IMG/VR virus record: IMGVR_UViG_3300022918_000013
Coordinates: 1-61,901 of that record
Direction: 5' to 3' (one strand)
DNA from: a virus
Taxonomy: Duplodnaviria > Caudoviricetes
DNA length: 61,901 bases
The translations under genes were made by a program, and so were the position numbers. The notes under the pieces are model-generated. The model was given only the letters and a program-made list of their open reading frames with translations, was not told the origin of the DNA and ran no database searches. Each line of letters begins with the position of its first letter. Position 1 is the stretch's first letter. Of this stretch, positions 4,576-6,804 are shown in pieces.

Positions 4576-5013
4576 ATGAGTACTGAGCCCAATGGTGTCC
4601 TTCGACGTAACTCAAACCTGCAAATAGCGATTGCGGTTATTGGGCTTATTATTCTCATTGGTGGCCCGATTTACAATCTAGCCTCGCGGGTTGATGCGCA
4701 TGACTTGGCTATCAACAATATCCACACGCAGAATACTCAGAGTTTCGACAATAGAACCATCCTCTCGAAACAGGTTGATGAGAATAAAGCCTCATTGTTT
4801 GAGATGCGTGAAAAGCTTAGCAACGAGGTAACCGAGCGGAACGCCAAGCTTGTCGAAGTTGAAACTCAGTTCGCCTCTACTGAGAACAAGATCAATTCAT
4901 TCATCGCCAATCAGGAGCGATTGAATGCTATCATGTGGAACAAAATAGGAACTCTTGGCACATATCCAAGCGCGCCTTATTTCTTCTCAAATATTAGCCA
5001 GCACGAACGATGA
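4576..5013 (+). CDS. Membrane-anchored coiled-coil protein
   Basis: Transmembrane segment IAIAVIGLIILIGG followed by heptad repeats. Confidence 0.6.
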   Translation: MSTEPNGVLRRNSNLQIAIAVIGLIILIGGPIYNLASRVDAHDLAINNIHTQNTQSFDNRTILSKQVDENKASLFEMREKLSNEVTERNAKLVEVETQFASTENKINSFIANQERLNAIMWNKIGTLGTYPSAPYFFSNISQHER

Positions 5014-5405
5014 GCCTAGGCTTCAAAACATCTCCCACTTGGGGCACAGCTCGCACTTGGCGAACGTCTCCCACTTTCCACGTTAACCCATCTTGGCACA
5101 CTGCGGGGCTTTCGCCACCAGTGGTTGCGCCGATTCTAGTCGTTGATGCGGATGTTGGAAGCTATGTAGCTAATCTCGCCTGGACGCCTAGCAACAATAC
5201 GGGAGCGCCCGGATTTGGGTATGAGATTTACATACAGGTTGATGGCGGTGGGTATACGTTGCTCGATACAGTCACGGATTTGACATACGATTATGACGCT
5301 GGCTCTACGGCTGGCGATTATGATTTCTATGTGACTCCCAAAAATGATGCGGGCTCAGGCCCTGAAAGTAACATAGGAAGCATTGCCCTGCCGGGGGAGC
5401 TATAA
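5010..5405 (+). CDS. Fibronectin-III-like virion protein, probably extended to 5476 by -1 frameshift
   Basis: LAWTP, GYEIY, YDFYVTPKNDAGSGPES pattern of FN3 domains. Confidence 0.75.
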   Translation: MSLGFKTSPTWGTARTWRTSPTFHVNPSWHTAGLSPPVVAPILVVDADVGSYVANLAWTPSNNTGAPGFGYEIYIQVDGGGYTLLDTVTDLTYDYDAGSTAGDYDFYVTPKNDAGSGPESNIGSIALPGEL

Positions 5406-5478
5406 CGGCTCGCCTCCTTGAAGATGGGGCGGGCCGGTATCTCGAAGACGGAGCAGTTAGAAACTTGGAAGGCTAAAC

Positions 5479-6804
5479 ATGGCAGGCAAAATTACAGACT
5501 TAACAGAACTGACGAGCGGCAATTTAGCCGACGCGGATCTTGCTGAAGTGGTGGACACTTCCGATACGTCGATGGCTCCCACGGGAACCAACAAAAAGGC
5601 GCTTTGGAGTACTATCTGGACTTACATCAAAAGTAAGGCTGACCCCACTTACGCCACCGCAGCCCAAGGCGCTACCGCCGATAGTGCCGTTCAGCCTGGA
5701 GATTTAGCAACAGTCGCCACCTCTGGAAGCGCTTCGGATTTAGGAACGGGCACTTTGCCCGCCGCTCGCTTGCCCGCCCCAGGGACAACCACTCTTGGCG
5801 GCGTAAAGCGTAACACTGGCGCAGGCGGTCAATTCGTCTCCGGCGTTGATACTGATGGGTCTCTGCTTTACAGCACTCCATCAGGAAGCGGAGATGTGGT
5901 AGGGCCTGCGTCTGCAACTGATAACGGCATTCCTCTTTACGACGGGACGACAGGCAAACTGCTCAAAGATAGTACGGTGACTTCTACCGTCTTAACCGTT
6001 CAATCTGCTGGTACTGCCTCAGTTCGTGCCATCGGAACTGGAGGAACAGATGCTTGTGCGGGCAATGACAGCCGCCTTTCTGACGCTCGCATGCCTACTA
6101 GTCACGCTTCTTCTCATGTAACAGGCGGTTCTGACAAAATCCGTGACGCTTCTGCAAGTCAGGACGGCCTAATGACCGCCGCCTACGGAACGAAACTTGA
6201 TGGCATCGAAGCTCTAGCAGACGTGACGGATGCGGGCAATATCGGCCCGGCCATCAACGGAACATCCTCAAAAGGATCTCTCGCTGATGGTGACAAGATC
6301 CCAATTCTTGATTCTGCCGCTTCCAATGTCCTGAAGTACATTCTCGGAAGCACGCTTAAAGCTCTTTTTGCGCTCACTGGTGCAATCACTAGCTCGACAC
6401 TCACGATGACCACGGCGCGGCTTCTTGGGCGCACCACTGGCAGCACTGGCGCTGTTGAGGAACTGACGGTTGGCGGCTCTTTAGTGCTTGCTAGTGGCGT
6501 TCTATCGTCCCGAATGGCTATCGTCACTGAGACAGGAACAACCCGCACTTGGACGACAGCAGATGCGGGCAAGTGGATTCGTTTCACGAACGCCTCGGGT
6601 TGTTCATATACGATTCCAGGCTCAACGGCTTCAGGCGAAGAAGAAACAGCGATTGAGCAAGCTGCCGCCGGTCAAGTTACACTTGTAGAAAGCAGCTTCA
6701 CTATCAACAAGGTTTCGACGCTCAAGACTCGCGTTCAATCTTCCGTCATTGGCCTCAAGTTTGTGAGTTCTAGTGTTGCCACTTTAACGGGAGACACGCA
6801 ATGA
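5479..6804 (+). CDS. Tail fibre protein
   Basis: MAGKITDLTEL start; GDVVGPASATDN and DSRLSDARMPTSHASSH fibre repeats. Confidence 0.8.
   Translation: MAGKITDLTELTSGNLADADLAEVVDTSDTSMAPTGTNKKALWSTIWTYIKSKADPTYATAAQGATADSAVQPGDLATVATSGSASDLGTGTLPAARLPAPGTTTLGGVKRNTGAGGQFVSGVDTDGSLLYSTPSGSGDVVGPASATDNGIPLYDGTTGKLLKDSTVTSTVLTVQSAGTASVRAIGTGGTDACAGNDSRLSDARMPTSHASSHVTGGSDKIRDASASQDGLMTAAYGTKLDGIEALADVTDAGNIGPAINGTSSKGSLADGDKIPILDSAASNVLKYILGSTLKALFALTGAITSSTLTMTTARLLGRTTGSTGAVEELTVGGSLVLASGVLSSRMAIVTETGTTRTWTTADAGKWIRFTNASGCSYTIPGSTASGEEETAIEQAAAGQVTLVESSFTINKVSTLKTRVQSSVIGLKFVSSSVATLTGDTQ

Follow-up and report, generated by a model that had tools for sequence, protein, structure and literature searches.

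In an uncultivated phage known from a 61.9-kb viral metagenome record that looks complete (hereafter the window, meaning the whole stretch of 61,901 nucleotides that was analysed), a programmed -1 ribosomal frameshift probably sets the share of a small adaptor protein that carries a fibre-docking tail. Three things read directly from the sequences carry this proposal: the anatomy of the junction, its conservation in relatives, and the match between tail type and fibre type. The adaptor is a putative fibronectin type III (FN3) protein encoded just ahead of the fibre gene. The features of the locus are:

5010..5405, + strand: zero-frame ORF of 131 aa, with a predicted disordered N-terminal arm and one putative FN3 domain; proposed tail-less short isoform
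5393..5399, + strand: slippery heptamer G GGG GAG at conserved Pro-Gly-Glu codons, read from the sequence; near-equivalent of GGGGGAA
5403..5405, + strand: zero-frame stop TAA between heptamer and hairpin, read from the sequence
5406..5436, + strand: candidate stimulatory hairpin of -22.8 kcal/mol, 6 nt 3' of the heptamer, from folding
5399..5476, + strand: -1 frame tail with three 8-residue LEDG-type repeats and a stop at 5474-5476, from translation
5479..6804, + strand: downstream fibre gene of 441 aa, proposed docking partner, its N-terminus type matched to the LEDG-type tail

The last zero-frame codons are Pro (5391), Gly (5394), Glu (5397) and Leu (5400), followed by TAA at 5403-5405, so that the stop lies two codons past the run of five G (5393-5397). 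Counted from 5396, the -1 frame encodes 26 residues up to its stop at 5474-5476, and the fibre ATG at 5479 follows 2 nt on. The -1 frame is open from 5375, for 34 codons in all. It holds neither ATG nor GTG, and its sole TTG is found three codons ahead of its stop. These positions agree throughout with a first-pass annotation made from the sequence alone, which had described the ORF end, the heptamer, the hairpin, the -1 frame lacking an ATG and the stop 2 nt before the fibre gene.

An open frame of 26 codons is ordinary by chance, and it is the encoded peptide that exceeds chance. The tail consists of three copies of one 8-residue unit, written with differing codons for Arg, Leu, Asp and Gly, as expected under selection on the peptide. 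The same LEDG type of tail also ends in-frame relatives of the FN3 protein (the L100 and L035 groups).

We propose the following mechanism. Most ribosomes translating 5010-5405 would terminate at 5403-5405 and yield the tail-less FN3 protein. Some would pause with the Gly and Glu tRNAs on 5393-5399, held by the hairpin at 5406-5436, slip one base back and read the -1 frame to 5476, which would add a three-repeat tail of about 25 residues. The outcome would be two isoforms whose ratio the RNA sets, and slippage would set the number of adaptor copies able to hold a fibre. Both slippage and its efficiency are what we infer from the comparisons below.

The heptamer allows the required re-pairing. 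At 5393-5399 the Gly tRNA moves from GGG to GGG with perfect pairing, and the Glu tRNA moves from GAG to GGA with a central G:U pair. It is this mid-position pair in the A site that makes the heptamer depart from the strict X XXY YYZ form. Compared with GGGGGAA only the last base differs (G for A), and it lies outside the re-pairing. The first-pass annotation had named GGGGGAA as a mycobacteriophage slippery site. This holds for actinobacteriophages generally: PMC10885494 covers about a thousand frameshifts annotated in these phages, among which the 'five-two' motif takes GGGGGAA as its sole form, and describes how a G:U pair lets the Glu tRNA re-pair with GGA. In the two-tRNA slip the zero-frame Glu (5397-5399) would be kept and the next codon read would be the -1 codon at 5399. 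The junction peptide predicted earlier has a second Gly at this place instead, unlike the product of this usual kind of slip. The run of G by itself may exist merely as a result of conserved Pro-Gly-Glu and a preference for codons ending in G; as the same codons are also present in relatives that need no shift, the run alone proves little.

The frame break adjoins a homopolymer and the record is a metagenome assembly, and one could thus suppose an assembly or sequencing error in a gene that is truly one base longer and in frame. The single public run with this DNA gave a second, independently built contig (61786 nt, depth 15.9), probably from the same reads as the window; it is identical over 5000-5800 with no gaps, which indicates that the break is not an assembler artefact. 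G5 instead of G6 is therefore found in both assemblies, at the level of contigs. In addition, two unrelated contigs described below have the same layout with different heptamers. We consider an error very improbable.

Variation in the length of the G run in the DNA or in the transcript, by phase variation or RNA polymerase slippage, would supply the extra base in a subpopulation. One additional homopolymer base (in G5, G6 or A5) repairs all three -1 cases that we describe, and assembled contigs drop rare variants, such that contigs are blind to a minority of G5 or G6. Nonetheless, 5-6 bases make a short run for either mechanism. Length variation explains neither a hairpin at frameshift spacing nor the -1 stop conserved in in-frame relatives, and the second contig shows no difference in length. 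We regard this explanation as improbable.

Next to the frameshift stands the question of what the protein is. The window FN3 protein scores 18.8 bits against PF00041, whose cut-off is 25. An FN3 fold is seen in an AlphaFold2 model of a homolog, P0041, that is 43% identical to the window protein (alignment A1). In this model the FN3 core has a pLDDT above 90, and the N-terminal arm and the tail are below 50 and unstructured. The model has a TM of about 0.7 to FN3 domains in the PDB, and these matches are generic. An Atlas search likewise gave generic FN3 and tip-attachment-protein-J clusters only. A trimer prediction for three copies of P0041 residues 44-171 scored 0.00, which is evidence neither way.

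A full HMMER search brought up 485 relatives of the FN3 protein. Close relatives of this phage did not turn up: blastn against phages was empty, a word-index search matched the protein with itself only, and a single-protein scan of viral contigs was empty too. We counted the family architecture on 42 small relatives among the 485. The in-frame tail of about 25 residues comes after one FN3 domain in 13 of them and after at least two in 15. Another 10 stop three codons or fewer from a conserved Pro-Gly, and 4 are fragments or odd. Six proteins (P0012, P0037, P0039, P0048, P0061 and P0070), available as protein sequences only, end directly after Pro-Gly. The tails of the family fall into four types (LEDG, RPDG, LLN and Trp-rich), each with three units about 8 residues apart. 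Family loci on viral and metagenome contigs have their genes in a common order (portal, small genes, FN3 gene, fibre), with portal proteins about 32% identical. The window cassette would have been inherited from a family of FN3 virion proteins located between the portal region and the fibre gene.

The layout of the junction varies within this family. Scanned by pattern, loci L018-L090 and the window returned 51 junctions, of which 30 are unique. The tail is in frame in 19 of these, with an identical nine bases for Pro-Gly-Glu. In 7, a small gene of its own encodes the tail, and the ATG of this gene overlaps with the stop of the FN3 gene. One junction is unrelated. The remaining three require a -1 shift: the window, L039 (= L075) and L044.

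The FN3 proteins of L039 and L044 are about 45-49% identical to that of the window. In both, the zero frame stops 2-3 codons past Pro-Gly and an RPDG-type tail follows in the -1 frame, with no start codon and no N-terminal module. The heptamer is G GGG GGA in L039 and the canonical G GGA AAA in L044, both of the X XXY YYZ type. The split frame and the hairpin are therefore present in homologs, which are not all in frame. A tree of 34 FN3 domains (P0117 and P0120 were missed by the domain pattern and left out) supports 2 of its 31 inner branches, and with so little support the window, L039 and L044 may represent a single -1 event.

The separate-gene layout is found in L018, L019, L022, L030, L032-L034, L043, L046 and L050, where the FN3 gene stops directly after Pro-Gly. 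Most of this group have an overlapping gene of about 45-53 codons that encodes a short hydrophobic N-terminal module (about 28 residues) and a Trp-rich tail; in L043 the sequence runs out within the small ORF. The hydrophobic module resembles the N-terminal one of the FN3 proteins. By analogy with these loci, the window tail could be made alone, as a 24-residue peptide from the non-canonical start ATA at 5402-5404. This ATA overlaps the TAA precisely at the site where ATG and TGA overlap in the separate-gene relatives, which may be chance or a trace of layouts interconverting. But ATA is a very poor start codon, a purine-rich stretch lies just about 2 nt upstream of it, and the module of the small genes is missing in the window. 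The matching codons are TTA in L039 and GTG in L044, so no start is conserved. Furthermore, the window has a G run and a hairpin, both of which are absent from the separate-gene relatives. A peptide made on its own is accordingly the kind of explanation to which we give hardly any credence.

We then turn to the candidate stimulatory hairpin. Its minimum-energy fold has 11 pairs and a one-base bulge; the unbulged 11-bp register with two G-U pairs that had been described earlier is an equivalent alternative. In a 46-nt frame, in which a stable structure follows the heptamer after a short spacer, the hairpin has a z of -4.2 and 1 of 200 shuffles is as stable; this excess stability vanishes in an 88-nt frame, which is not significant (whole-stretch z just -0.95, with 37 of 200 shuffles as good). 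Among 400 synonymous recodings of the tail peptide, 0.5% reach the native stability. The hairpin has no T tail and is absent from a terminator scan, and a search of Rfam gave no match.

Hairpins of -22.0 kcal/mol (L039) and -18.5 kcal/mol (L044) start 3-5 nt past the heptamer in the other two -1 cases, and their native folds are matched by 0% and 1.3% of 400 recodings, respectively. Together the window, L039 and L044 hold three of the four most stable hairpins in the junction set. In-frame relatives also have hairpins, of -13 to -25 kcal/mol and 6-7 nt past the heptamer. For in-frame tails 0-5.5% of recodings match the native fold. For in-frame junctions with a second FN3 domain next, the native fold is weakly better than recodings (1-31% match), and the stem before that domain may partly be a by-product of a Gly/Ala-Pro ... 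Gly-Pro linker. Separate-gene junctions fold poorly (-4.2 to -6.8 kcal/mol in the 7 folded; z of 0.2 to 1.8 in the 5 shuffled). RNAalifold on 19 junctions found no shared hairpin in common columns, because the stems occupy non-homologous columns.

Codon usage at the junction provides a second line of evidence. In the 21 unique junctions with a G run, the junction Pro is CCG in 21 and the junction Gly is GGG in 20. At another conserved Pro the codons are mixed (CCA 10, CCG 9, CCT 1, CCC 1). Two other conserved columns of the same genes have GGG in 18 of 21 and GAG in 19 of 19; as GGG and GAG are favoured throughout this group, the junction Pro codon alone is a clean signal. The separate-gene set, which for this comparison consists of 9 unique junctions (the 7 from the pattern scan and two more), has neither CCG (0/9) nor GGG (0/9) at the junction, though GGG is common elsewhere in those genes.

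The in-frame relatives preserve more than codons. There are 25 unique G5 junctions: one chance match, the window, and 23 in-frame family members. In all 23 of the latter, the third -1 codon is a stop (TGA 19, TAA 3, TAG 1), even though the two residues encoded there differ between relatives: the first is Ser, Phe, Gly or Ala and the second is Glu, Asp, Asn or Ser. Directly past Glu, every codon at these junctions has T as its last base. Ser, for example, is TCT in 17 of 17 cases, compared to 12% of the Ser codons in the same genes. Heptamer, -1 stop and hairpin are all kept in the in-frame relatives with a G5 junction, and the cassette is thereby conserved in diverged homologs of both kinds, the three -1 cases among 30 unique junctions and the 23 in-frame junctions. 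The junctions at which the -1 stop is kept despite changing residues are those of L020-L053, L074, L079, L088, L098, L100, L103 and L116.

These patterns suggest that slippage in the in-frame relatives yields a truncated isoform. The zero frame holds the tail, or a second FN3 domain and a tail, in most relatives, where a -1 slip would add one residue and then stop. In the window phage and in L039 and L044 this polarity would be inverted. Across the family, the slippery run appears to travel with the hairpin and with a stop close by in the other frame, and all three appear to vanish where a shift would be useless. The nucleotide conservation could alternatively mark a site where modules recombine, which leaves unexplained why the -1 stop persists as the codons change.

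The same comparison bears on whether the window break is a fixed, unprogrammed frameshift, caused by loss of one base or by a recombination joint past the Glu codon. Only the tail-less protein would then be made and the tail would be a young pseudo-remnant. That most relatives are in frame (19 of 30 unique junctions; 23 in the G5 set) fits such an event, as does the finding that one base added past the Glu codon restores the usual junction of Pro-Gly-Glu and a small residue; moreover, we found no close relative with which to date it. A remnant does not account for a tail whose 26 codons are all intact and whose three repeats fit the family pattern, nor for the cognate fibre N-terminus still next door. 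L039 and L044 share the layout, always in -1 and always at slippery codons, and the hairpins of the three -1 cases go far past the synonymous expectation. We therefore judge a fixed mutation unlikely. The comparative evidence, from L039 and L044 and from in-frame as against separate-gene relatives, favours a programmed -1 shift with two isoforms, as the first-pass annotation had proposed.

Frameshift isoforms of phage structural proteins are known, usually as single cases. According to Atkins et al. 2016 (PMC5009743), phage capsid and tail proteins can gain a C-terminal extension or an Ig-like domain (Fraser et al. 2006 as cited there) through a -1 or +1 shift, and relatives may carry such an extension in frame. 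Gene 10 of T7/T3 (10A/10B), for example, has a -1 shift near the end of a virion gene and a minor isoform with a C-terminal extension (PMC5009743). In the window, by contrast with gene 10 and the Ig-like extensions, the Ig-like (FN3) domain precedes the shift site, and what the shift would add is a disordered three-repeat tail of about 25 residues; the carrier would be a small adaptor-like protein by the fibre gene, not a capsid or tail-tube protein.

The G/GT chaperones of actinobacteriophages have the same -1 direction, a near-identical heptamer and the same Glu tRNA re-pairing through G:U (PMC10885494). The window gene belongs to a different family, and its position is not between tail tube and tape measure, so that it is not a tail assembly chaperone of the G/GT kind. 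Its extension is also tiny, with a zero-frame stop within two codons. The proposed shift would thus be outside the tail-chaperone context: the FN3 gene lies between portal-proximal genes and the fibre gene, with an extension of about 25 residues.

The dnaX gene of E. coli (tau/gamma) has A AAA AAG and an upstream Shine-Dalgarno-like stimulator, and slippage makes a truncated isoform. The in-frame relatives resemble it in that heptamer and hairpin are followed almost at once by a stop in the -1 frame. Unlike the phage genes, dnaX is a cellular replication gene, and the truncating role in the phage relatives would follow from conservation. The window case fits a known kind of frameshift extension and differs in its carrier, its added part and its apparent two-way use. 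A literature search found no paper joining fibronectin type III, bacteriophage and slippery ribosomal frameshift. Here one cassette is found across an uncultivated phage family, seemingly with its polarity flipped, and this family would offer a ready-made set of variants in which to study the effect of a one-base indel on an isoform ratio.

What the tail does is suggested by its neighbour. We listed 25 unique pairs of tail and next gene, with 10 pairs for the RPDG tail, 6 for LLN, 3 for LEDG and 6 for Trp-rich. By inspection, in all 25 each tail type adjoins one type of fibre N-terminus, with no exception. The pairing (window 5399-5660 and the matching parts of L018-L117) holds for the in-frame, the -1 and the separate-gene layouts. 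For example, residues 1-55 of the window fibre are 72-78% identical to fibres that adjoin in-frame LEDG-type tails; this N-terminus has no match in phiKZ. The rule that LxEDG-type C-termini precede fibre genes is thus true within the FN3 family.

Such consistent pairing suggests docking, and we infer that the tail probably docks on the N-terminal part of the next-encoded fibre. Tail and fibre N-terminus are also adjacent, and the pairing can alternatively be read as simple linkage of neighbouring genes. If docking is correct, the pairing suggests a simple peptide-domain code for attaching receptor-binding fibres, which could help both in the annotation of metagenomic phages and in the exchange of fibres.

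The tail also has matches outside the FN3 family. Searched alone, it matches the last residues of PHROG 2935 (E = 0.12). By tblastn against all phages it matches the extreme C-terminus of phiKZ gp143 in 62 records of Pseudomonas jumbo phages, with 68% identity over 22 residues (E = 1e-2); within the phiKZ genome alone the match has E = 2.3e-5. PDB sequence searches with the tail and with gp143 gave no match, and a suggested likeness of the tail to the foldon of T4 fibritin has no support in the analysis.

The gp143 gene (L014 2539-3072) ends in the tail motif and is annotated as a virion structural protein. The Goslar preprint (10.64898/2026.04.21.720040) names gp143 a DUF7941 protein and, for the DUF7941 filament proteins of chimalliviruses, proposes that a flexible segment past the N-domain docks head-to-tail on another protomer. 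PMC12894885 reports gp143 as a holin-specific lysis regulator. In our hands gp143 matches DUF7941 (PF25613) weakly, at 18.3 bits with a cut-off of 27, and among ten window ORFs scanned between 3 and 7935 none matches. What gp143 and PHROG 2935 share with the window is the same three-repeat motif at the extreme C-terminus of a small virion-associated protein. The gp143 tail is in frame and its protein has no FN3 domain, in contrast to the window protein, and the ten window ORFs lack a DUF7941 match.

It is conceivable, though doubtful, that the tail is a portable tag for docking on fibre-like partners, whose copy number in the virion is set by recoding: in the FN3 family by a -1 shift in both polarities (extension or dnaX-like truncation), and in phiKZ-like phages by readthrough of the capsid TGA. 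The three repeats might then each contact one subunit of a trimeric partner.

Finally, the second match of the tail in phiKZ is in frame with the major head gene gp120 and lies directly past its TGA (L017 2010-2093; NC_004629.1 about 120509-120592). In HPP-Temi, 201phi2-1 and Noxifer too, 26-28 codons past the capsid TGA encode the same three-unit motif with a terminator hairpin just after (approximately L091 613-700, L092 714-800 and L093 696-785 in these other genera). Such an arrangement looks like conserved readthrough of the stop codon, giving an extended form of the capsid protein. A literature search on readthrough or the stop codon of phiKZ gp120 or the major capsid protein gave no such paper among the matches listed, which appear to concern transposon mutagenesis and transcript mapping. 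The motif past the capsid stop is present in four genera of phiKZ-like jumbo phages and would mean that a well-studied capsid protein has a readthrough form so far unreported.
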